This document shows, in pieces, positions 49,943 to 64,000 of a stretch of 64,000 nucleotides of DNA. The stretch spans positions 60,552-124,551 of the forward strand of contig CAXTYC010000007.1 of NCBI GenBank assembly GCA_964248365.1, in the 5' to 3' direction. This DNA is from an uncultured Chroococcidiopsis sp. (GTDB lineage: Bacteria > Cyanobacteriota > Cyanobacteriia > Cyanobacteriales > Chroococcidiopsidaceae). Under the pieces are notes generated by a model. That model was not told the origin of the DNA. It saw only the letters and a list, made by a program, of their open reading frames with translations, and did not search any database. The position numbers were made by a program, and so were the translations under genes. How positions within the stretch are numbered: position 1 is the stretch's first letter; each line of letters begins with the position of its first letter.

Positions 49943-51019
49943 TTAGCTAAAGGCTTCAGACAGATAATCAGCAGCAGCTTCTACCACAACGATCGCTGTT
50001 TCATAATCCATTCTGGTTGGTCCTAGTACGCCCACGCTTCCCACTGGTACTGTACCTCGGCGATAGGTGGCAGAAATCAATGTACAGCAGCGGATTGGTT
50101 CTAAGGTATTTTCTGAGCCAATCCGAATCGATACTCGTCGCCCCGCTTTTGACTCTCCTTCTGGCTCTTCAAAAATCAAAGGTAATAACTGCTGCTGCTC
50201 TTCTTCCAGCAGGTGGATAATGGTTTGCACTTGCTGTAATTCAGAAAATTCTGGCTGACGTAACACTTCTGCCACACCCCGAATCATTAGTTGAGTCACG
50301 GCGGGTGTTTGAGTGCGACGAGATAAATCTGCTAGGACGGTTTTTAAGTAATCGCCATAGCGTTGAAATTCTTGGTCTAATTGAGTCCAATCAAGTGTAG
50401 CCAATTCCCCAAGCGATCGCCCCTGTAGCTGAGTGTTCAAAAAATTTGAGAGAATCTGCAACTCCCGTTCCACTACTTCCGGTTGTGGTGGTGTTTCCTC
50501 AGCCGAAAAAGGCAACTCCAGTAATGCCGATTGTGTCTCGTATGCATCTGTCACCACAATTAACATCACCCGTTCTGGCTCGATTGGTATGAGTTGCAAG
50601 TGTCTTAACCGAGCTGTGTTGTTGTGAGGCATGGTAATTAAGGTGATGCAGCCACTGACTGTTGCCAGAATTTGCGCTGCCCCCTGCAATAAGGCTTCTA
50701 GGCTCCAATCCTCCCATTTAAGTCGCTTTTGGAATAAATGCTCTACCTGTCGCCCCCAGATGTCAGAAGGTGTAATTAGCTGATCTACATAAATGCGATA
50801 GCCCCAATCCGAGGGTACACGTCCTGCTGATGTATGAGGTTGGTAGAGTAAACCAGCTTTTTCTAACACACCCATTGTATTACGAATTGTTGCTGGGCTA
50901 ACTTGGAGATTGTACTCCTCTACCAAAGCTTTTGAACCTACTGGCTCTGCGGTGGCGATGTAGTGGCGCACCGTTGCCCAAAGTATTTGCTGTTGCCGAT
51001 CAGTAAGCTGCACTTGCAT
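49943..51019 (-). CDS. hrcA: heat-inducible transcription repressor
   Basis: [23 protein letters not shown] and LGPTRMDY motifs. Confidence 0.97.
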
Positions 51020-51378
51020 AGCTAGTTTAAGCCGAGGAAATCTTATCGGATTTTAAAAACAGTGAATGTAATTTATAGAACTGTTAAGTTTTAGTTATTA
51101 AAGATAACAAATTAGTTACATCAGTTGAAAGCAGCCAAGGGATAGATCTAGGGTAAGCGCCTTGATGCTGTTACATCGGGTGATGGCGATCGCCCACTCA
51201 CTTCAGTGTAAACGACATGGCTATTACTTCTTTTGTTCCTAAAAGCTATCGCCATTAGCGCCATTGGCAATATATGTAGCCTTATTCAACTATACTATGT
51301 ACTTTCTCTTAATTTTACTATTTCTTTGGTAGTAAATATTACTAAATGAGTATCTAGGGGCAAGAGCGCCCCTAGCCC

Positions 51379-51723
51379 CTAATATCTAGAAATGGTTGGA
51401 TCGACCAGGATTGAGTAGGCATCGATGCCACCAACCACGTTTTTAACATTGGTAAAACCTTGACTGGTTAGCCACTGACACATTTGGGCAGAACGAATAC
51501 CGTGATGGCACATTACCAATGTTTCAGCATCAGTGTCAAAACGGGTATGGATTGAGTCACACCATTGGGCAAATTGACTTAAAGGCAGGATTTCAAAACC
51601 TTCAATAGAGGCGATCGCTACTTCTTCCGGTTCGCGCACATCCAGCAATTGCAGTTTGCCCACATCTTTCCTCAAGCGTTGGGCAAGTTCTTCTACACTG
51701 ATTTGGGCAATAGGTTGATTCAT
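51379..51723 (-). CDS. single-domain rhodanese
   Basis: LLDVREPEE, CHHGIRS and GGIDAY motifs. Confidence 0.93.
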   Translation of the reverse strand: MNQPIAQISVEELAQRLRKDVGKLQLLDVREPEEVAIASIEGFEILPLSQFAQWCDSIHTRFDTDAETLVMCHHGIRSAQMCQWLTSQGFTNVKNVVGGIDAYSILVDPTISRY

Positions 51724-52021
51724 ATTAGGAGGGGCTAGAGGAAGCGCGGGGCTAGGGGCTAGAGGCTAGAGGCTAGAGGAAGTCGTCAGGTGAGGAAGCC
51801 AGAATTCTCCCCTTTTCCCACTCTCCCTATCTCCCCAGCTCCCCCTGCCCCTTGCGCCCCCCTGCTCTCTTATGTGGGCGGGTTTTAAAAATTTCTTGTA
51901 TTGTAGGGTACTAGACTAGGTTTTAGCAGATATCTTCCTAAGCAGGAGGTTGGATAGTGGCTGGTTATCAATCCCGAATGCACTCAGGCTGGCTAGTCTA
52001 CTATAACCTTTGTAAACAATC

Positions 52022-53782
52022 ATGAATCGACGCTCATTCTTCTCTTCCTTGGCAGCTGGTGTAGTTGTGCTGTTGTTAATTGGCATCAGTGGGTATTTCT
52101 GGATAGCCTCTCAAAGTCCGCTTACCCTGCTGCCAGGTGGTAGCAAGGCTAACCCGCAAGCGGCTATTTTCGTATCGAAACAAGCACCAGTGATGGTTTC
52201 CCTGCTGGTGAATCCAGACAAATTGGAGTCGTTGGGGCAACTGGCAACTCGTTTGGGAGAACGAAAGCGATCGCGTGAACAACTTAACCAGCTAAAAACA
52301 CGCTTGCTGGCTAATACAGGTTTAGATTATCGGCGTGACATCCAACCTTGGTTGGGAGAGGAAATTACCCTAGCTGTTACTGGGGAGGATCTTGACCGCG
52401 ACGAAACCAATGGTAAGCACTCAGGGTATTTGATGGCGCTGACTACTAAAGATCCAGTAAAAAGCCGCGAGTTTTTGCAGCTATTGTTTTCTAAACGAGC
52501 GATCGCAGGTAGAGAATTAGTTTCAGAGCAATACAAAGGTGTTAACCTGATCTCTGACAGTGGGATTGTAGGGACGATATCTGATACATCGGCAAAACCA
52601 CAGCCCTTAAAATCGATTGGACAAACTGAAAACTATCTAGCTGGTAGCGTAGTGGGCGATCGCTTTGTGCTGTTTGCCAATCATCCCAAGGTATTACGCG
52701 AAGCAATCAATAATGTCCAAGCACCCGATCTCAACTTAACCAGTTCTAGTCAATACCAACAAGCACTAACTTTGTTGCCCTCCCAGGGGATTGGTATAGC
52801 TTTCCTAAATCTTGCCAGCGTGAGTGAGTGGCTTGGCAAGCAATCACAAATGCTAACTTATACCAGCCAAATCATTGGCTTGGAATTGAACCGCCAGGGA
52901 TTACTGGCACAAACAACATTTATAGCAGCACCAGATAAGGATTTAGCTCCTCCCCTTTCAACCCTGTCTCAACCTGTGCAGGCATTACAGTACATCCCAG
53001 TTAATACAGGTTTGTCGATTTCCGGTTTTGATTTAAGCAACTCCAAAAAAACTGATTTGAACCAACTATGGACACAAATCACAGCAGTGTTATCTGGTTC
53101 AGGTAATGACGCAATTTCTAAATTAGTCACTCAACCCCTAGCAACACTGCAAACGAGCTGGGGTATAGACTTGGCAAAAGATATTTTCAGTTGGGTAAAA
53201 GGAGAATATGCCTTGGGAATGCTTCCCCATGCTGACACTTCCGCTCCCGATTGGATTTTTGTAGCAGAAAAATCGGAGGGAGCAGAACAAGGAATAGCCC
53301 ATCTCAATGCGATCGCTCAAACCAAAGGACTAAGTATGACACCCCTATCTGTGGGAGAGCAAAAAATTTCTGCTTGGACACAGCTAATAACCGCTCCTAC
53401 AAACGACAAGGATGTAGATCGATCATTGCTCACGCTCAAGGCGAAAGTTGAGGGTGTACAGGCGAGTGTAGGAAACTACCAAATTTTTACCACTTCGGTC
53501 GAGGCAATGGATGCAGCTTTAAAAGCAGCCAAAAATAGTTCTATAGTTGATGACGCACAATTTCAACCAATTGTCAAGGTGATTCCCAAACCAAATCAAG
53601 GTTATGTGTATCTCGATTGGCAGCAAAGTCGGGAGGTATTAGAGCGCCAAGTGCCGATTCTCAAACTGTTGGAAGTGGCTGGAAAACCATTTTTTGACCG
53701 TGTGCGATCGCTAACAATTAGTAGTTACGGCAGCGAAACCCACGTACTCAAAGGCAGCATCTTTTTCCAACTCAAACCCTAA
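52022..53782 (+). CDS. DUF3352-type exported protein
   Basis: N-terminal anchor; DIQPWLGEEITLA and DIFSWVKGEYALG repeats. Confidence 0.8.
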   Translation: MNRRSFFSSLAAGVVVLLLIGISGYFWIASQSPLTLLPGGSKANPQAAIFVSKQAPVMVSLLVNPDKLESLGQLATRLGERKRSREQLNQLKTRLLANTGLDYRRDIQPWLGEEITLAVTGEDLDRDETNGKHSGYLMALTTKDPVKSREFLQLLFSKRAIAGRELVSEQYKGVNLISDSGIVGTISDTSAKPQPLKSIGQTENYLAGSVVGDRFVLFANHPKVLREAINNVQAPDLNLTSSSQYQQALTLLPSQGIGIAFLNLASVSEWLGKQSQMLTYTSQIIGLELNRQGLLAQTTFIAAPDKDLAPPLSTLSQPVQALQYIPVNTGLSISGFDLSNSKKTDLNQLWTQITAVLSGSGNDAISKLVTQPLATLQTSWGIDLAKDIFSWVKGEYALGMLPHADTSAPDWIFVAEKSEGAEQGIAHLNAIAQTKGLSMTPLSVGEQKISAWTQLITAPTNDKDVDRSLLTLKAKVEGVQASVGNYQIFTTSVEAMDAALKAAKNSSIVDDAQFQPIVKVIPKPNQGYVYLDWQQSREVLERQVPILKLLEVAGKPFFDRVRSLTISSYGSETHVLKGSIFFQLKP

Positions 53783-54225
53783 CTAGGGGCTGGGGGCTAG
53801 GGGAGCAGGGGAGATAAGGAGATGGGGCGAAATCTCCCTATCACCTCACCATCCCATACCCTCATCCTCTTCTTCCTCTAGCCTCTAGCCCCGCGCTTCC
53901 TCTAGCCCCTCATTCCCCAAAGCACCAAGAAAGCACCAGCACTAATACAGCCAAAATTAACCAACTGGGTAGGCTCAAGTTTCTAACAAATTCTAGGGGA
54001 GTCAATACAAACACTTGAGTTAGGAGCGTAGCTGTAAATAATAGGAAGACAATCAAGATAAATGACGGCATATAAAACTAGGGGCGACTCTTGAGGGGTG
54101 ACTCTTGAGGGGGAATCAGGGGCGAGGGGGAGAGTGGGTGAGGGGGAGAATCATTAATTACCTTTCCCCTTTTCCCTTTACCCTTTACCCTTTACCCTTT
54201 ACCCTACTCCCTGCTCCCACTCTCC
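53783..54225. repeat. STRR-rich intergenic region
   Basis: GGGGCTA/TAGCCCC arms, (TTTACCC)4 and duplicated gactcttgagggg. Confidence 0.85.
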
Positions 54226-54317
54226 TGGCTCTGTGCAATTCTAAAATCTATAGTTAGATGTCACACGAAGGCTAAGATAGAAAATGTTTATATTCTGCCC
54301 AGTGTGGGTAACAACTC

Positions 54318-55109
54318 ATGCTATCTACCTTGCTTGCTGACTTCAAAATCATTTTTGAGCGTGATCCAGCTGCCCGCAACTGGCTAGAGGTACTATTTTT
54401 CTACCCTGGTTTGCAAGCAATTGTATTCCATCGGGTAGCGCATTCACTTTATAGACTGCGTATTCCTGTCATCCCCCGTTTAATCTCCTTTGTTGCTCGA
54501 TTTTTGACCGGAATTGAGATCCACCCTGGTGCAGCAATTGGACGAGGTTTTTTTATTGATCACGGGATGGGGGTTGTGATCGGTGAAACAGCGATCATTG
54601 GAGATAACGTTTTGCTTTACCAAGGTGTAACCCTTGGCGGTACTGGGAAAGAATGCGGTAAGCGTCATCCTACCGTAGGGAACAATGTGGTCGTTGGCGC
54701 TGGGGCAAAAGTACTGGGTAATATTGAGGTTGGTAGTAATGTCCGAATTGGTGCTGGTTCGGTAGTTTTAAGGAATGTTCCTTCTAATTGCACAGTTGTA
54801 GGTGTACCAGGTCGGATTATATATCGTTCTGGGGCGCGGGTTGACCCTCTCGAACACGGTAGTTTGCCTGATTCAGAAGCACAAGTGATTCGCGCTTTAG
54901 TTGATAGAATTGAGTCTCTCGAACAACAACTAGAAAAATTGCAGCAACAACAGCCTGTATATCAAGCTGCTTTGTTAGAGGCTAACTCTAAGTTGTCAAA
55001 TTCTAAGTCGTTAGAGGTTAGCTCACCAGAAGCTAAAACTCATGTTGTCACTAGCTGTCAACTTAGAGATAAGACGATTCAGGAATTTTTGGATGGAGCA
55101 GGAATTTGA
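54318..55109 (+). CDS. cysE: serine O-acetyltransferase
   Basis: [21 protein letters not shown] and [12 protein letters not shown] motifs. Confidence 0.97.
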
Positions 55110-55120
55110 ATTAGGAGTCA

Positions 55121-55184
55121 GTAGGGGCGGGTTTGCTTAGGATATTTGTGGTTAATCTAATATGTCAGTAAAACCCGTCCGTAC
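55121..55184. repeat. 64-bp REP-like palindromic element
   Basis: gtaggggcgggttt...aaacccgtccgtac; same family as 40521-40584. Confidence 0.85.
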
Positions 55185-55199
55185 CCACGTCCAAAATTG

Positions 55200-55569
55200 C
55201 TGGAGTCAGGAAAAAGTTATAGTAAGCATCTAGTAATTTACTGACTTCTTCGAGTTGAGACATTAACCGTAGATTGTCATTAGGCTTACCATATCTAAGA
55301 TCTTTTGACAATATTAGGTAATAGCGACTTTCTTCAAGTGAGCCTTATGCGATATTCATAAACCGAGCTTTATCAGCTTTAGTTTTTTTCTTAAAGCCTT
55401 CTGCTATATTTGCAGGAATTGAAACAGCAGAGCGCGAGGTTGAGAAGTCAAGCCATAAATTTCGGTTTTTGGAATCTCCTCACTCAAAAGGTAAGTAGAC
55501 AAAACAAATTGATGTGCCTTTTGCCAAACAATCAAATCTTGAAAACATTTAGCTGGTGCATCTGTTCAT
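55200..55569 (-). pseudogene. four-helix-bundle (23S rRNA IVP / Avd-like) pseudogene, absent from the ORF track
   Basis: Reverse strand reads APAKCFQDLIVWQKAHQFV..EIYGLTSQ / RSAVSIPANIAEGF..FMNIA*GSLEESRYYLILSKDL; frameshifts near 55560 and 55436, TAA at 55345-55347. Confidence 0.88.
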
Positions 55570-55632
55570 TCTGACTCCTCACCTCCTCACCTCCACAACT
55601 CCTCGCCTCCACAACTCCTCACCTCCGCTGTC

Positions 55633-56247
55633 CTAGGGATTCACCCCTCGAATAGACCAAATTTGATCTATATCACCCCATTTATAAATCGTGCGGTTTT
55701 GAGGTTCGCCGTGCAATTCTAAATGATCTACTTGTACTGGTTTTAGTAGCAGCAAGCAAAAATTTGCTAGAGGTTCGCACGCATTGGGTAGAGGTGGATC
55801 AAATGCAGCAGCATCGGCTCTAGGTTTACCTGGATCAGCCCAAGCGAATTGTAAACGTGTTGCATCACTAAGATCTTGCCAAGCGGTTTGACGCGCTTGC
55901 TGTAAAACTGCATCAGGATAATTGGATGTTACCAATGTCAAACAACCCGCCAGCCGGAATTGTTCACGAGATGAGGGAAAATACCAACAAGCTTCTGCCC
56001 AAGGTTGATGTTCAATTTGTTCAGGTTTTTGACTGCGAGAATCGATCGCAAACTTTAGCACGTCGGTGTCAGCAAGAAACCCCCGAAAAACAAGTGTACG
56101 ATTAGCAGGGCGATTATCTGCTCTCACAGTTGCTAGTTGTAAATAACGAGCATAAGCAAGGCTACGATTGAGATCAATGGCACGAGCAAGGGGCGATCGC
56201 CAGGGAGCTAAGGACATCGTTATAATAATTTGTCTTGATATTGACAT
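55633..56247 (-). CDS. pyridoxamine 5'-phosphate oxidase-like FMN-binding protein (start probably MSLAPW)
   Basis: YLQLATV..PANRTLVFRGF, DSRSQK, EACWYF..REQFR and VDHLEL motifs. Confidence 0.9.
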   Translation of the reverse strand: MSISRQIIITMSLAPWRSPLARAIDLNRSLAYARYLQLATVRADNRPANRTLVFRGFLADTDVLKFAIDSRSQKPEQIEHQPWAEACWYFPSSREQFRLAGCLTLVTSNYPDAVLQQARQTAWQDLSDATRLQFAWADPGKPRADAAAFDPPLPNACEPLANFCLLLLKPVQVDHLELHGEPQNRTIYKWGDIDQIWSIRGVNP

Positions 56248-56628: not shown

Positions 56629-57330
56629 TTAATTTTTGTTTCGCAGTAATTTATATTGCCGCAGAAGATGGAAATTTTCTGGTGTTAGAAAATTGCGTAA
56701 TTCCGTTACCTCATTGAGAAGATTAATTTCTTGGTCACATTCTGCTTGTAAAATTTCCAAATAGCGATCGCGCTGTACTCCAGGTGGAGCATTCCTCATC
56801 ATATGAATTGCCATATTTACTTTGGCAACACTATTACGCAAATTCTCAGAAAAATTTTGGAATATTTCTTCTCTATTTTCTACAAATTGTTGTAAATTAT
56901 GAAGTTTTTTTTCTAGGTTTTTATATTTTTGCTGTTCAATAATATAATTACGCATCGTCGATAATTGCCTTTCTAATCGAGCCGTGACTGCTCCTAACAA
57001 GTCATCTCTAGTAAATGGCTTAGTGATATAGTCATCTGCACCTAATACCATACCTTGACGCAAATCTAAATTACTAGCTTTTGCTGTAATAAAGATAAAG
57101 GGAGTAACAGCAGTAGTTAGGTTTTTTCGCAACTGGCTTAGTACTTCATAACCATTCAGGATAGGCATCATAACGTCGCAAAGAATCAAATCGGGTGACT
57201 TGTCCTGCGCCAGTTGCACCCCAATTTCACCATCTTCTGCGCCAAATACATCGAATTTCTCAGCAATAAGTATTTCGCAAATGATTTCCCGAACAGTTAG
57301 CTCATCCTCAATTACCAAAATCTTTGTCAT
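56629..57330 (-). CDS. response regulator (receiver domain plus coiled-coil/HisKA-like output)
   Basis: ILVIEDE, PDLILCDVMMP, FITA and GADDYITKPF motifs. Confidence 0.92.
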   Translation of the reverse strand: MTKILVIEDELTVREIICEILIAEKFDVFGAEDGEIGVQLAQDKSPDLILCDVMMPILNGYEVLSQLRKNLTTAVTPFIFITAKASNLDLRQGMVLGADDYITKPFTRDDLLGAVTARLERQLSTMRNYIIEQQKYKNLEKKLHNLQQFVENREEIFQNFSENLRNSVAKVNMAIHMMRNAPPGVQRDRYLEILQAECDQEINLLNEVTELRNFLTPENFHLLRQYKLLRNKN

Positions 57331-57527
57331 TTGTCTATCTATACGATGCCATAAACACGTTTTACCCCACTGATTTGTCACTTTTTTTAGCCATGCTAAA
57401 GTTCATGCAAATCCTAGAGGACTGGTTGCAGTTCTAGTGTTCCCACTTCTACCTAAGAAATCATCAAAAAATTAAGCAGTATGCCACCCATGCCCACCAA
57501 ATTATTGATGGTGGGCGAAGCCCCGTA

Positions 57528-59345
57528 TTACACCACAGCGGAGGGATGGGTGGCATACCAATTACCAATTCTCCCAATTGTGACTGTGAATGTTGTCCCT
57601 ACACCCACTTGACTATCGACGGTAATGTCACCACCGTGTAAATCAACAGCCTTTTTCACAATTGCTAACCCCAGCCCAGTACCAGCAATGTTGCTAACGT
57701 TACTAGCGCGGTAAAATGACTCAAACAGGTGCTGTCGGTCTTCTTGGGGAATACCAATGCCTTGATCTTGAATCTGGAAACTTGCTGTCTCATCTTGACA
57801 AATTAGTGCAAACCGAACCGTGCTACCGACAGGAGAATACTTAATCGCATTTGAAAGCAAATTGCCCAGGATGTGCCGAATCAGCTGTTCATCCATATAA
57901 ACGTTGGTACACTTACATTGCTCGGTAAAGACAAACTTGTGTTTAGTACCAGGAATATGTTCTAACTCTGCCACCAAAGTGCGACACAATTGAACCAAAT
58001 CGAGTTTTTTAGGTTCAAATTTTAATTTTCCTGCTTCTGCTTTACCCAACAGCAGCACATCCTCTAATAGCTGGATCATATGTTGGACATTAGCTTGAAT
58101 GCGATTGAAGTAAAGCAGTTTTTTATTATCTGTCCATGTGTGGCTGTAGTGTCTAAGTAATTCAGTAGAACCTAGGATCGCTGTCAATGGAGTGCGAAAT
58201 TCATGGGAAGTCATAGTAATAAAGCGAGATTTGAGTTCACTCAGTTCTTTTTCTCGCTCTAGAGCCTGACAAAGTTCTTCTTGTGCCTGCTTGCGTCTGG
58301 TAATGTCACGGCAGACACAAATCATTCCTCCATTTTTGAGCCATGTCAGAGAAACTTCAGAGGCAAATGTAGTGCCGTCCTTTCTTTTGGCAGTTGTCTC
58401 ACCTTGCCAGTAACCCTTATGCAAAAGCTGGGGAAAGACATTCTGTTCAAACCATTTGATTTCGTCTTGAGAGTAAAGCTGTTGCCATGTGAGTCCCAAC
58501 AGTTCACTGGTATCCCCATATCCAAATATATGGATATGAGCGCTGTTGAGATAAATGTACTCACCATTTTGATTGAGAATAGCAATACCATCATTTGCCG
58601 CTTCGATCGCAGCTAGCTGCTGCTGCAAAGCAACATTTGCCAGATGGCGCGAGCCAATTTCTCGCTGCAATTGTTCATTAGCAGTCTTTAATTGGGTAGT
58701 TCGTTTCTCAACCTTGATTTCTAGCTCTTGATTTACCTTGCGTAATGCCGCCTCTGCTTTTTGGCGCTCTTGCCGTTCAGTTTCGAGTGCCAGAACCAGT
58801 TCTGCATTACGGTTTTGCAATTGAACTTTTTCGGCTTGGAGTTGGCTAACTTGTTGCTGCAATAGCGCCGCCCTGTTTTGTTCTATGGATACAGATGGTT
58901 GAATGTGGCGAATACTATTTGGCATCATCATCTCCAGCAGTTGAGTGCGATCGCTCAAAATCGGTAAATGGGATCTGTACTGATGAAATGCTTTCACTAC
59001 ACTAAAAATATCCTGCAACTGTGATTTTCTCAAGCTAATCAAATGCCGTAACATCGCATCGGTAACTTTGACTGCCTTAAAATTTAACCCCAGTACTAAC
59101 TCGCTCAAATCCTGCTGGGTTAACAACTCAATTAGCTGCATTCCCTCCATCACCAAAACACAACTAGCTATTACCTCATTCATCCAACTTGAGGTTAACG
59201 ATTGATGATAGCTAGGCAGCCAGCTACTAGCCTGTACCTGCCCGATCAGATTAGATATGTCTTCCAGGGAAGTATCAGGTGTAACGCGCAGCAGGTGAGG
59301 GTAAATAGCTGTTTCTATGGCTAAGGAAGACAGCGGGTTTTGCAT
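57528..59345 (-). CDS. sensor histidine kinase (degenerate CBS-like region, coiled coil, PAS, HisKA, HATPase)
   Basis: SHEFRTPL, NLLSNAIKY, DQGIG and GTGLGL motifs; PAS segment DGIAIL..YLN..RKDG. Confidence 0.95.
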   Translation of the reverse strand: MQNPLSSLAIETAIYPHLLRVTPDTSLEDISNLIGQVQASSWLPSYHQSLTSSWMNEVIASCVLVMEGMQLIELLTQQDLSELVLGLNFKAVKVTDAMLRHLISLRKSQLQDIFSVVKAFHQYRSHLPILSDRTQLLEMMMPNSIRHIQPSVSIEQNRAALLQQQVSQLQAEKVQLQNRNAELVLALETERQERQKAEAALRKVNQELEIKVEKRTTQLKTANEQLQREIGSRHLANVALQQQLAAIEAANDGIAILNQNGEYIYLNSAHIHIFGYGDTSELLGLTWQQLYSQDEIKWFEQNVFPQLLHKGYWQGETTAKRKDGTTFASEVSLTWLKNGGMICVCRDITRRKQAQEELCQALEREKELSELKSRFITMTSHEFRTPLTAILGSTELLRHYSHTWTDNKKLLYFNRIQANVQHMIQLLEDVLLLGKAEAGKLKFEPKKLDLVQLCRTLVAELEHIPGTKHKFVFTEQCKCTNVYMDEQLIRHILGNLLSNAIKYSPVGSTVRFALICQDETASFQIQDQGIGIPQEDRQHLFESFYRASNVSNIAGTGLGLAIVKKAVDLHGGDITVDSQVGVGTTFTVTIGRIGNWYATHPSAVV

Positions 59346-60075: not shown

Positions 60076-62691
60076 ATGAAAAAATCTCGAAGAAATGGGC
60101 TTTATCGCCAACTTGTAGTAGCCACTCTGTTAATGGGTGGTGCGTTTAATTTAGCCGCACCTGTGTTAGCCGCAGGGACTGCTGCGGGAACGGGCATTAG
60201 CAACACAGCAACTGCTACCTACCAAGATCCCAATGACCCTAATAATACACCAATTTACGCTACCTCAAACACCGTCACGATTACGGTGGCAAAAGTGGCA
60301 GGTGTCACCGCGACTTCTAGTGGTATCTCAGAAGCTCCGAGTTCTGTTAATCCTAGTAATACTAACCAAGGCAACGGAACGATTAATACGGGGGATGTCG
60401 TCTACTTTGACTACACCATCACCAACGTCGGTAACGACAACACGCAATTCTTTATCCCAGGAGCACCTTCCCAAGTTCAGGGTGGTACCTTTGACCCCTC
60501 TACTGCTGCTGGACAGATTCAAATCGTTAGTGTTACCGATCCTAATGGCAATACTACAGCTACCGCCATTACCGTCCCAACGGCTGGATCTCTAACTGGA
60601 AGTATCACAGGTACAGGAATGCCCGCTAATGGTTCGTTTGCTGCTGGAGCAAGTGTGAAGGTTCGGGTGCCGATTAAGGTAACGGCAAATACATCTGGGG
60701 CACCGATTAAGGTTGTACTAGGTGACACTGGAGCTAACGATAACACTGCTGGCACTCAGAACCAGTCCTACGTCGCCAGTACCGTGACCGCTCCGTCAGG
60801 AGTTACGGGTTTTGGGAATTATGATATTTACACTCAAAAGGTTACTGGCAGCAACGATCCAGTTAACGGCGATTCCACGAACCACCGACAAGAAGCCAGC
60901 GTCAGTCAACAAATCTTCCTAGCTGCTACACCGAAAGCTTTTGCTACCATCCTCAACACTCAAACAAACTTCCAAGCAGGCACTGGTGCCACATCACCCG
61001 ATGGTACTCTCACTTACGGTTTGAGCTTGCGCGTGGAGAACAGCTCTCCTGACACTGGATTTATACCTGCCGACTTGCAAGGTACTGCCGTCAAGGTTGA
61101 TACGGGAACTGGTGTTCAGACTAAATCCAACATGATTTTGGTGTCTGACGTTGTTCCCACCAATACGACGCTGGTTACTAATAATGGTGTTGTAGCACCA
61201 TTAAATTGGACAGCGGTTTACAGCACCGACGATCCGGCAACCACTAATCCCCTGCAAGCAACTTGGTCAACAACCGCGCCTACTAATGCGACGACAATTA
61301 AACGCATCGGTTTTATTTACGATGCGACTACTACACCAATCGCTAAAGGCATAACCGTCAATAGTTTTTCCTTTAAAGTGACAACGAATGTAGCTAGTAA
61401 TGGTGGAACAGTTGCTAACCTAGCTCAGGTCTTTGGTCAAACCACAAACAATCCAGCCGATCCAAACATACCACTGGTTTACGATGAATCGGGCGACCAG
61501 AACCCAGACAACTATGACGGTTCTACACCTGCACCTGACAGCAATCTTAAGCCTAGTGACTTCAACACTAGCAGCGCTAATAACCCAGCGGAACGAGGCA
61601 TTGCCACTCCAGCTACCCAAGGAATTGACAATAACAATAACAACACGGGTGTGGGACCAGGTGGCGAGGATAACGTCTTCTCGCTTCCAGCAACAACCGC
61701 CACTATTCTAAACGGACCAAATGGCCAGCCTAGCGCAGTTGGACCGACAGGCAATAACGATGACTTCACTAACAAGTCAGTGCAAGTGCCAGCAGCTAAC
61801 TCCGCTCCAGGCAGCACCATCCCCAATCCAGGTGCAATTACCTTCACTAATACTGTCCAGAACCCCACTGGTACGGCTGTGAGCAATGTTTTGCTGCGTC
61901 CCAATAACATTGTGACTAACAAAACAGATTTGATTGATGGCACTAAAGTCACAATTAGCTTGGGAGCTAACAGCGGAACTTACAGTTACAGTCAAACCAG
62001 CGGTCAGTTTACGCTCTTAAGCGGTACACCTGTGTCGATCGCTTCTTTGCCAGCGAACACATCCTTGAATTACACGGTGTCAGTACAACTGCCTAACAAT
62101 ACACCATTGTCAACGGATATGAATACCACTACTAATAAGCTCTATGGTGGTTACTCAGTCCCGATTGTAGCTTTTACAGATAACAATGGTAACGGTGCTT
62201 ACGATCCTGGTACTGATGCAGGTAACATCACCATTGACCGCGTTTACACAGGTTACTTGAAGTTAACTAAGGAAGCGCGGATTCTTGATGGCAACGGCAA
62301 TCAAGTTGCACCTGCCCAAGCTAACACATACACCAATGACCCAACAGTGCTTAGTCCCGCTTCTGTTCCAGGTAACACCATCGAGTACCGAATTCGCTAC
62401 AAGAACATCTCTGAAGCAGCAAGCGGTACTGGCAACGTGGTCTTGAATGCTAGCAACACTGTGATTTCCGAAGATGGAACGCTTAGTCCAAACACTTGGT
62501 TTGGATTAACTGTAGATCCAGTCTTCCCAAATAACCCCAACGGATCGGCGCTAGCTACTGCTGGGACGATTACAGTCGGACCGCAAAACGGCGACATCCA
62601 GGTCTACAAAAATAACTTGGGTACAGTTACGCCTTCTGGCTCTACAGGAGCAGACAACGGTAACTTCATATTCCGGCGCCGGATTAAGTAG
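60076..62691 (+). CDS. large secreted Thr/Asn/Gly-rich multi-Ig (DUF11-like) protein
   Basis: Signal peptide ending VLA; GTAAGTGISNTATATY; GDVVYFDYTITNVG; C-terminal LKLTK..PGNTIEYRIRYKN. Confidence 0.8.
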   Translation: MKKSRRNGLYRQLVVATLLMGGAFNLAAPVLAAGTAAGTGISNTATATYQDPNDPNNTPIYATSNTVTITVAKVAGVTATSSGISEAPSSVNPSNTNQGNGTINTGDVVYFDYTITNVGNDNTQFFIPGAPSQVQGGTFDPSTAAGQIQIVSVTDPNGNTTATAITVPTAGSLTGSITGTGMPANGSFAAGASVKVRVPIKVTANTSGAPIKVVLGDTGANDNTAGTQNQSYVASTVTAPSGVTGFGNYDIYTQKVTGSNDPVNGDSTNHRQEASVSQQIFLAATPKAFATILNTQTNFQAGTGATSPDGTLTYGLSLRVENSSPDTGFIPADLQGTAVKVDTGTGVQTKSNMILVSDVVPTNTTLVTNNGVVAPLNWTAVYSTDDPATTNPLQATWSTTAPTNATTIKRIGFIYDATTTPIAKGITVNSFSFKVTTNVASNGGTVANLAQVFGQTTNNPADPNIPLVYDESGDQNPDNYDGSTPAPDSNLKPSDFNTSSANNPAERGIATPATQGIDNNNNNTGVGPGGEDNVFSLPATTATILNGPNGQPSAVGPTGNNDDFTNKSVQVPAANSAPGSTIPNPGAITFTNTVQNPTGTAVSNVLLRPNNIVTNKTDLIDGTKVTISLGANSGTYSYSQTSGQFTLLSGTPVSIASLPANTSLNYTVSVQLPNNTPLSTDMNTTTNKLYGGYSVPIVAFTDNNGNGAYDPGTDAGNITIDRVYTGYLKLTKEARILDGNGNQVAPAQANTYTNDPTVLSPASVPGNTIEYRIRYKNISEAASGTGNVVLNASNTVISEDGTLSPNTWFGLTVDPVFPNNPNGSALATAGTITVGPQNGDIQVYKNNLGTVTPSGSTGADNGNFIFRRRIK

Positions 62692-62874
62692 GTAACAAGG
62701 TAAGGCAATTGGCTATGGGTATTTAAACACTATACATCTACCATCCCCTAGCCTTTTTCCTTTGCCAACAATCTTTCGTTATCAGGTGTTTTACCTGGTG
62801 ACGAGAGATATATAAACAGGCTAAAACAGAACCGCAAAAGTTGAAATACCTGGAACGTCAAGAGGTTTTTGAAG

Positions 62875-63444
62875 ATGAAATGTTTTTCTATTGTTGGTGT
62901 TAGCGCGATCGCGCTTTTGAGTGCAAGCGCATTTATTGGTGCATCACCATCGGTCGCAAATGTTTGGCATACACCAACTGCGGAAGCGAGAAATGTCCAG
63001 CCTAAAGCCAAAATAGACTTGAGCTTAACAGCACAAAAGCAAATTGTACAAAAAGACGCTCAAGGCAAGCAAAAGATTACTTGGCAACCCTTGCAAGGAA
63101 GAGTCGCGGTTATGCCAGGAGATGTGATTCGCTACATGATAACTGGTGCAAATAACAGCGATCGCTCAGTAAACAATTTAGTTGTCACCCAACCAATTCC
63201 ACAGCGGACAGCGTATGTTTTAAATTCTGTCACTGTTAATCACCCTGGAGCAATCGTTACCTACAGCATCAATAACGGCAAGACTTTTGTAGAAAAACCG
63301 ATAATTCGAGTCAAGCTAGCTAACGGCAAAGTGGAAACTCAACCAGCACCAGCACAAATGTATACTCATGTTCGCTGGAAATTTGCACAACCAATTAACC
63401 CCAAAACTGCTGTAAATGCAGCTTACCTGGTAAGGGTGAAATAG
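62875..63444 (+). CDS. secreted single DUF11-like domain protein
   Basis: Signal peptide; LTAQK..PGDVIRYMITGAN..NLVVTQPIP..VRWKF. Confidence 0.8.
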   Translation: MKCFSIVGVSAIALLSASAFIGASPSVANVWHTPTAEARNVQPKAKIDLSLTAQKQIVQKDAQGKQKITWQPLQGRVAVMPGDVIRYMITGANNSDRSVNNLVVTQPIPQRTAYVLNSVTVNHPGAIVTYSINNGKTFVEKPIIRVKLANGKVETQPAPAQMYTHVRWKFAQPINPKTAVNAAYLVRVK

Positions 63445-63715
63445 CAAGCTTATGTTGGGCGATCGCGGCTGCATATTTATTGACGGCGATCGCCTTAAAC
63501 TTTACTCCTTAACTGTCAGCATTAGCAACTAGCTTTTCATATTGATCGCTTAGCAATCAGGAAAATTTCCTACTCTCGATTGCCAGGGAATTTTTATGTC
63601 TTAATGCCGGATTTATCTATTCCAAGCAATTTATTATTTTTGCCTGCAAAAGCATTATCAATCAACTTTTTCTCTTCCTACAACCCGTAGGTTAAAAAAG
63701 CCAAGTGAACCTCAA

Positions 63716-64000
63716 ATGCGTCGTCCTAATAGCTCAAAAACTCAACGGTTCCCACTCCTGAGTGCAGCAATTTTAGTCAGTAGTGTCTGGCAAAGCTTAA
63801 TACCTGTTCCAGCCGAAAGTGCCAGTTCAAATCCAATTATTAACCAAGCAACTTATTCATACAACACATCCGATTCAGACTCCCCTTCTGCAAACTTAAT
63901 TCAAGGAATTACTAGTAAAGTTGAATTTCAGGTTCAGGGTTTAGTAGATCCTCTGGGAAAAGTTACAGGCTGTGCTGGTGAGACTTTACCCGACTATACC
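63716..64000 (+). CDS. secreted protein, 5' part (runs off the right edge; not in ORF track)
   Basis: Frame open for 95 codons: MRRPNSSK..signal..SNPIINQATYSY..LVDPLGKVTGCAGETLPDY. Confidence 0.8.
   Translation, partial: MRRPNSSKTQRFPLLSAAILVSSVWQSLIPVPAESASSNPIINQATYSYNTSDSDSPSANLIQGITSKVEFQVQGLVDPLGKVTGCAGETLPDYT

Follow-up and report, generated by a model that had tools for sequence, protein, structure and literature searches.

Chaperone-usher pili (Fim, Pap, Csu) are built by donor complementation, with an acceptor-only subunit at the tip, a donor-only terminator, a small periplasmic helper, and an outer-membrane barrel, the usher, of 24 strands. Type V pili (Fim/Mfa) start from a lipoprotein precursor and use a C-terminal donor strand. 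Covalent linkage of subunits without a sortase has been described for BsaA of Clostridium perfringens, a member of the TasA family, in which an Asn-bearing N-terminal strand enters the neighbouring subunit and an autocatalytic bond is formed with the participation of Lys and Glu (N35-K74-E56; 10.1101/2024.11.04.621531). Within single chains, isopeptide bonds are formed by DUF11 domains, also known as CLIPPER; the solved domain 9IFR has nine strands and a K715-N806 bond with D748, the Lys being located towards the beginning of the domain and the Asn towards its end (PMC12617251). Here we describe a four-gene operon that begins at the right end of a 64,000-nucleotide stretch of DNA from an uncultured Chroococcidiopsis sp. 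(the window, G000:C7:60552-124551; coordinates without prefix are window positions). It encodes a conserved, apparently undescribed fibre-assembly system with a split domain architecture, a defined strand register, conserved synteny, separate classes of donor-only, acceptor-only and disarmed proteins, and a large predicted barrel. A CLIPPER (DUF11) isopeptide domain cut in two would build a cell-surface fibre.

The three co-oriented open reading frames (ORFs) at the window end (Table 1) had been noticed in an earlier reading of the sequence, referred to as the original prediction, which proposed that the N-terminal strand of one gene 1 product completes the C-terminal domain of the next and becomes linked to it by a K732-N43 bond. 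The three genes, the gene 1 residues N43, K732, E799 and D800, and the strand IINQATYSY of gene 3 (63836-63862) are all present as listed there, and the operon continues past the window as expected: gene 3 and gene 4 extend beyond its end, gene 3 is complete at 507 aa, and the start of gene 4 overlaps its stop. No further long co-oriented gene was found directly 3' of gene 4 in the downstream sequence. The original prediction gave all three genes signal peptides. Here these were called from basic residues at the N-terminus, a hydrophobic segment and an AxA-like cleavage site; by hydropathy and charge, each of the four genes specifies a basic N-terminus followed by a hydrophobic stretch. Gene 1 is present in a single copy in the genome. 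Scans of the operon for promoters and terminators gave scores not exceeding chance, and a look-up of RNA runs listed none.

The AlphaFold2 model of the gene 1 protein (120 sequences, pLDDT 90.6, pTM 0.72) is nearly all beta and consists of several Ig-like domains, D1 to D4, whose limits were drawn from structural matches to this model. The first 40 residues of the mature protein are its least confident part (pLDDT 69-77). With the whole model, Foldseek detected generic multi-Ig matches only (query TM-score at most 0.15), and the gene 1 profile had no match among PDB sequences at E values up to 1. D2 corresponds to DUF7925, for which an internal triad is listed in Table 1 of PMC12617251, and superimposes on the solved CLIPPER domain with an rmsd of 2.7 over 122 aligned residues. 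The system has the fold and the Lys/acid/Asn layout of CLIPPER/DUF11 (PF01345, 9IFR) and DUF7925, and D2, like the domain in gene 3, represents a complete copy. D2 is absent from several gene 1 homologues of 570-610 aa. A search for still shorter relatives consisting of hairpin and acceptor only yielded 12 matches, mostly on short contigs.

D4, on the other hand, is a CLIPPER-type domain without its last two strands. K732 is located on its first strand in the model and an acid is found nearby, but the Asn of the same domain is missing. The D4 profile showed a weak match to the DUF11 domain of gene 3 (35%, E 4e-4) that ends near position 106 of 141, and in this weak alignment E799 falls on D293 of the complete gene 3 domain. 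In homologous shafts, the C-terminal domains match DUF11 (114 positions) above its cut-off and then end: positions 2-92 in Thermus, 9-84 in Pacificitalea, and 7-93 in Deinococcus. D4 was assigned to CLIPPER/DUF11 because of the gene 3 match, these shaft matches, and the fusion proteins described below. In 100 of 138 acceptor-matching representatives, the protein ends no more than one residue from the end of the match, before the penultimate, Asn-bearing strand; longer tails are mostly short or belong to the fusions. The original prediction, in which this DUF11-like domain stops before its usual terminal strand, is retained in this respect. Its label CnaB-like is not, since DUF11/CLIPPER domains are CnaA-like (PMC12617251).

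The strands missing from D4 are apparently those at the N-terminus of gene 1. A single strand had been proposed as donor, whereas the element is a two-strand hairpin (residues ~33-72) equivalent to the last two CLIPPER strands; evidence that it completes D4 comes from sequence conservation, the natural fusions, covariation and synteny, and weakly from complex prediction. Two homologue sets were used, A with 120 sequences and B with 129 full-length representatives after 50% clustering. N43 and K732 are each found in 120/120 (A) and 128/129 (B), and position 799 is acidic throughout (E in 119 and D in 1 of set A; E in 120 and D in 9 of set B). Of the seven Lys-majority columns in set B, none but K732 is preserved in at least 97% of the sequences. 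Conservation of the Asn by itself is unspecific, because N43 is one of six among 55 Asn columns kept to at least this degree. By eye, N43, K732 and the acid are also preserved in the shafts of Thermus, Deinococcus and Pacificitalea. D800, named together with E799 as a possible catalyst, is less conserved (97/120 and 95/129) and was rejected, as it is E799 that aligns with D293 of gene 3.

Among 142 representatives, three natural fusions (P0273, P0285, P0294) were detected in which D4 is followed, after 0-3 residues, by the hairpin and D1. In two of the three D2 comes next, giving the overall linear order D3-D4-hairpin-D1-D2. This natural circular permutation indicates that the junction of D4 and hairpin is linear, head to tail. 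Two of the three fusions have Thr in place of K732, compared with Lys in 128 of 129 free subunits, which is suggestive at n=3. The short donor profile alone gave no significant match to complete CLIPPER profiles (0.2-0.6%), and the relation of the donor to CLIPPER is therefore drawn from the fusions. P0273, P0285 and P0294 are large proteins (991-2069 aa) that contain the permuted gene 1 within one chain; in P0294, parts of the DUF4347, beta-helix and FG-GAP types are present as well. All three could be adhesins acting as monomers, with the shaft as either their ancestor or their descendant.

Mean-field covariation analysis (316 sequences, effective number 195; maxima of 3.0-4.5 in five shuffles) revealed pairs within the hairpin (S42-T66, T44-T66, A47-A62, Q50-I60) and two pairs between hairpin and D4, Y49-G726 (rank 8, z 7.4) and A47-L728 (z 3.8). 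The latter two define an antiparallel register in which residue 43 faces 732. Prediction of a complex between mature gene 1 and a second D4 provided weak support, with a score of 0.50 versus 0.00 for the best control, agreement of the runs in at least 88% of the contacts, and a partner pLDDT of at least 85. Of the solved complexes, 116 of 157 attained the mark applied, as did 2 of 215 mismatches; with scores of 0.60 or less, however, only 18 of the 157 attained it, along with both mismatches. The two halves of a solved fold that has been split may also pass because of their likeness. Since no contacts were returned, the prediction leaves open where D4 is located.

From these data, pairing of donor and acceptor between chains is very probable and, given such pairing, the covalent bond is likely. 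Several observations weigh against this interpretation. D4 (residues 725-871) matched no Pfam family and is too diverged for a DUF11 call of its own. One strong covarying pair, A47-A734 (z 6.1), lies off the proposed register, and covariation does not discriminate between pairing within and between chains. About half of the genes found next to gene 4 at other loci encode beta-helix or OmpA-type proteins, and this operon is devoid of a fifth gene. Two further points concern the chemistry. Internal triads appear to be dispensable in places, because the Lys of the D2 triad (294/358/448; K in 108, D in 113 and N in 113 of the 129 sequences of set B) is replaced by N294 in this protein (60955-60957), with D358 and N448 still there. 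Moreover, most cyanobacterial shafts have Glu at position 799, and Asp is the acid of every CnaA-like domain listed in Table 1 of PMC12617251. The latter two would fit a head-to-tail fibre held by hairpin complementation alone, with K, E and N being structural or reacting slowly and partly; so would the oligomers of BsaA N35A, which remain resistant to sodium dodecyl sulphate without a bond unless heated (10.1101/2024.11.04.621531). This explanation is unlikely in view of the singular conservation of K732, the loss of the Lys in gene 2 and in two of three fusions, where an inter-chain link would be unwanted or unnecessary, and the Asp that non-cyanobacterial shafts have as their acid.

The hairpin could also fill D4 of its own chain, yielding a closed, perhaps self-cyclised, monomeric surface protein or a small ring. 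A chain of four domains might curve round far enough for this, the covariation and conservation data are equally compatible with it, and the complex score is weak. Yet shafts of three, four and more domains all keep the same two ends, the junction in the fusions is linear, neither gene 3 (donor only) nor the acceptor-only proteins contain a matching element in their own chain, and the hairpin is modelled with least confidence in the monomer. Self-closure is thus improbable, and pairing between chains is retained as the preferred interpretation.

The second gene appears to specify an acceptor that lacks the reactive residues. Gene 2 matched TIGR01451 (E 3e-8), and its profile matched the gene 3 DUF11 domain (95%) up to position 103 of 141, so that this protein, too, stops before the last two strands. 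At the position equivalent to K732 (position 55), Ala is found in 66 and Val in 8 of 74 sequences, and the acid position is occupied by Gln (Q108) in 74/74. Across 81 loci, the Lys position is Ala in 64, Gly in 10 and Val in 7, and the acid position Gln in 80 and Asp in 1. Three non-cyanobacterial copies are also devoid of the acid. Gene 2 would therefore be expected to accept a hairpin without reacting, which suits a reversible cap. We consider it an even matter whether gene 2 is indeed a reversible shield for free hairpins; alternatively, it could donate one of its long hairpins in the manner of classical chaperones. One gene 2 homologue (L009:9983-10561) is not accompanied by genes 1, 3 and 4 within 10 kb. 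A search of plasmids with gene 2 of Pacificitalea returned only the query itself.

Gene 3 consists of a donor hairpin, of which IINQATYSY is the first strand, a complete CLIPPER domain, and a C-terminal SdrD_B-like domain. Its donor matched that of gene 1 in profile comparison (95.7%), and a loose donor motif is present in 75 of 76 gene 3 proteins versus 275 of 1209 control ORFs. The residues of the CLIPPER triad, K259, D293 and N364, are each found in all 76 homologues, and K259 aligns with K715 of 9ifr. An apparent change of the N43 equivalent to Leu in 10 of 76 gene 3 proteins was discarded as an alignment artefact of longer variants, in which the Asn strand is visible. Gene 3 is thus donor only, with no open acceptor. 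In Pacificitalea, the equivalents of gene 3 and gene 4 form one protein of 2032 aa that carries the hairpin ahead of the barrel; because of this fusion, gene 3 is placed at the barrel. The subunit roles assigned originally are therefore changed in part. Gene 1 remains the proposed shaft, whereas gene 3 as tip was rejected, since it is donor only and, in Pacificitalea, part of the barrel protein. Its features suit an anchor at the base or a terminator, and the tip role fits the acceptor-only proteins described below.

For gene 4, residues 311-1400 were modelled (pLDDT 76.5, pTM 0.61). The model contains two Ig domains and about 36-40 long strands, counted from the secondary-structure list, with an inserted domain near model residues 376-467. 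Structural searches detected generic barrels only and no close solved relative. The match to FimD (Z 13.0 at an rmsd of 14.1) is on a level with porins, and SlpA and the type IX translocon (SprA) are among the top Foldseek matches, with query TM-scores of at most 0.23 and rmsd values of 25-37, a likeness of the generic large-barrel kind. Proteins with similar features fall into unnamed clusters that are commonest in Pseudomonadota. The first 310 residues (L001:6288-7220) contain several imperfect repeats around YLASLP and are very variable in length among homologues, gene 4 ranging overall from about 1100 to 2200 aa. The original prediction had suggested that the downstream sequence be read for a beta-barrel or usher-like exporter; a barrel is predicted there, but it is not of the usher family.

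The operon resembles chaperone-usher systems in its logic. It differs from them in a helper that has an acceptor fold instead of being a known strand donor, in the predicted covalent links, and in a barrel of about 38 strands versus 24 of the usher. In the genome, which is 99.97% complete, no match was obtained to the usher family PF00577 (E. coli control positive), to PapD-type chaperones (PF00345, controls positive; gene 2 is DUF11-like), or to sortases (PF04203, three controls positive). LPxTG was not found in the last 60 residues of genes 1-4, nor a class III prepilin signal (G-FxxxE-type) in their first 45 residues. Independence from sortase, as originally proposed, is in line with these results, and so is the distinction from type IV pili, to which the all-beta multi-Ig model of gene 1 adds. 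Type V pili differ as well, gene 1 being devoid of Cys and its donor being N-terminal.

To assess the distribution of the system, 80 loci found through gene 2 were compared, denominators being the loci with enough sequence. Around gene 2, gene 1 is located upstream in 72/73, gene 3 downstream in 77/78, and gene 4 in 63/64; all misses come from one locus. The closest relatives that bear a name are cyanobacterial. Of 201 genomes examined from the phylum, 21 contain DUF7925, and every one of these has a strong match to gene 2 in its vicinity. The same gene set is also found on plasmids of Thermus thermophilus HB8 (pTT27), Deinococcus ficus, Pacificitalea, and Synechococcus NIES-970. At 57 of 64 loci with a complete gene 4, a large fifth gene is present. 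Of these, 28 end in an acceptor-only domain (K in 27/28, D in 28/28), 15 are of the beta-helix/OmpA type by motif, 7 others are mostly so by eye, and 7 are cut off. The fifth genes of Thermus and Deinococcus likewise have terminal acceptor-only domains. In acceptor-only proteins, DUF11 and SdrD_B repeats come after an N-terminal region that is large and variable, an adhesin-like arrangement.

In the Chroococcidiopsis genome, an unlinked ORF on contig C25 (Table 1) belongs to this class. Besides an extensive N-terminal region, it has a single complete CLIPPER-like domain and ends in an acceptor-only domain. Its product is 56% identical over 596 columns to the fifth gene product of Nostoc FACHB-110. 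The ORF is located after four minus-strand genes, which we take to be related to SbcC, SbcD, HerA and NurA. Given how variable the acceptor-only proteins are at their N-termini, the system likely functions in adhesion, aggregation or biofilm attachment.

The second class of fifth genes (for example L008:14935-16536 and L016:16753-19038) specifies a right-handed beta-helix, an Ig domain and often an OmpA domain. Proteins of this type possibly tie the barrel to peptidoglycan. Their presence at many loci would suit a polymer that is short and of defined length, or one that forms a strut in the periplasm or an array in the envelope between barrel and peptidoglycan, instead of a long external pilus. 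Gene 3 fused ahead of the barrel's N-terminal domains points in the same direction, as the N-terminal domains of such barrels are usually periplasmic, and export through the barrel is something that we infer, because the gene 4 barrel has no close solved relative. However, the acceptor-only proteins are adhesin-like, the size of the barrel (about 38 strands) and its inserted domain would suit the passage of folded Ig domains, and no limit of chain length is apparent in gene 1. A short or periplasmic polymer is thus unlikely, and outward export with the polarity outlined below is quite likely.

The following mechanism is proposed. After Sec export, the N-terminal hairpin of gene 1 would complete the C-terminal D4 of the preceding subunit, placing N43 beside K732, and E799 would catalyse a Lys-Asn isopeptide bond between the chains. 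The chain would be started at the tip by an acceptor-only adhesin-like protein, here perhaps the product of the C25 ORF and in many relatives that of gene 5. At the base, each new subunit would fill the open groove with its hairpin, the K732-N43 bond forming slowly afterwards. The fibre would leave the cell via the gene 4 barrel, and donor-only gene 3 would end growth and hold the fibre at this barrel. Gene 2, an acceptor fold without Lys and acid, may shield free hairpins reversibly. Considered as a whole, this covalent-fibre model is somewhat favoured.

Table 1. Features of the fibre operon and of the unlinked acceptor-only ORF
Feature	Coordinates	Strand	Remarks
Gene 1, proposed shaft subunit	60076-62691	+	871 aa ORF: signal peptide, donor hairpin, D1-D3, acceptor D4
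Predicted Sec-type signal peptide, residues 1-32	60076-60171	+	cleavage probably after VLA; A32 in 118/120 homologues
Donor beta-hairpin, residues 33-72	60172-60291	+	N43 codon 60202-60204; suggested by conservation, covariation, fusions
Ig-like domain D1, residues 72-284	60289-60927	+	structural match 7wrk, Z 9.6, model 40-252
D2, DUF7925, complete CLIPPER-like, residues 285-538	60928-61689	+	PF25546 E 7e-56; 9ifr Z 9.6
Ig-like domain D3, residues 539-724	61690-62247	+	structural matches, model 507-695, best Z 9.8
Acceptor D4, residues 725-871	62248-62688	+	K732 codon 62269-62271, E799 codon 62470-62472
Gene 2, 191 aa	62869-63444	+	conserved Met at 62875; acceptor-type fold; proposed reversible cap or chaperone
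Gene 3, 507 aa	63716-64000 and on; full G000:C7:124267-125790	+	proposed base anchor or terminator
Gene 4, 1450 aa	G000:C7:125787-130139, beyond window	+	two Ig domains, predicted outer-membrane barrel
Unlinked acceptor-only ORF, 946 aa	G000:C25:12596-15436 (L088:3597-6437)		start probably later; candidate tip adhesin

Older work on slpM of Thermus reportedly exists and could be a prior description under another name. A search of the literature revealed no description of this operon, although subscription papers or a supplement of PMC9388160 could hold one, and nothing bearing on it was found in the accessible parts of PMC13297417 and PMC1274311. The CLIPPER domains of PMC12617251 form bonds within a chain and are parts of monomeric adhesins, the word 'donor' being absent from the main text, whereas here the domain is split between chain ends. 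BsaA has a TasA-type fold, a single donor strand, a SipW peptidase and a Gram-positive host (10.1101/2024.11.04.621531); the present system differs in its CLIPPER fold, its donor of two strands, its four-domain subunit, the predicted outer-membrane barrel and the disarmed acceptor. None of genes 1-4 matched a TasA family in Pfam and none of the 50 structural matches listed belongs to it, although a remote likeness may exist. No peptidase match was found among the four operon genes. In the archaeal thread formed by Saci_0406, subunits are joined head to tail by donor strand complementation and an inter-chain bond, with a putative donor-only cap, but Asn57 is bonded to the N-terminal amine of subunit n+2, the subunit is small with a single domain, and an outer membrane is absent (PMC9715654).

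The pond fibrils of TLP-1 (PMC11494351) and the Elr/WxL pilus (10.64898/2026.10.17.759780) are likewise donor-strand polymers outside the classical pathway; isopeptide bonds are not mentioned in the accessible parts of either source, and Elr is sortase-anchored and confined to Bacillota. TLP-1 was considered as a product of the operon and dismissed, as no sequence link was detected with the gene 1 profile against PDB (E up to 1). The grappling hook GhlA of Litorilinea is a surface filament with DUF11 domains in a row; in contrast to a polymer of short subunits, however, it consists of a single 6,596-aa chain, which comprises 49 domains and lacks a signal peptide (PMC13319060). For Deinococcus radiodurans, three barrels have been predicted at 38 strands (PMC9388160), and DR_0383, DR_1115 and DR_1185 are abundant envelope proteins of an 'S-layer-like array' (PMC5382914). 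Likened by description only, these barrels and array proteins could be three copies of this system. A protein of 1289 aa with a possible outer-membrane anchor (PMC9705863), presumably the product of all3289, was not matched to gene 4 here. For the chemistry, BsaA and the archaeal thread are precedents; in the literature searched, none was found for the fold, the helper or the export barrel.

Upstream of the operon, across a 730-base A+T-rich gap, two divergent genes are located on the minus strand (56629-59345), by motif presumably a response regulator and a PAS histidine kinase. A response regulator also precedes the Pacificitalea operon. The genes farther upstream (49943-56247) look ordinary, and we take them to be HrcA-like, rhodanese-like, serine acetyltransferase-like and FMN-binding. 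At a distance of 8 kb past the operon, an ORF of 500 aa with a YADD motif is found (L001:18328-19830), presumably related to group II intron reverse transcriptases.

In a wider sense, and with somewhat less than even odds, the operon may represent a pilus pathway not described before, shared by bacteria with two membranes (cyanobacteria, Deinococcota, Proteobacteria). In such a pathway, split-isopeptide links would form without an enzyme, a disarmed acceptor would be an inverse chaperone, covering the donor hairpin and leaving the groove unfilled, a barrel made from one chain, with about 38 strands and larger than an usher, would export the fibre tip first, and a donor-only subunit would lock its base. 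If this is true, another pilus class, covalent without sortase, would be added to the few of two-membrane bacteria, and a widespread unannotated operon as well as an unexplained family of very large outer-membrane barrels would obtain a function. The natural pair of hairpin and domain, with its orthogonal variants, would also serve as a protein-ligation tool.

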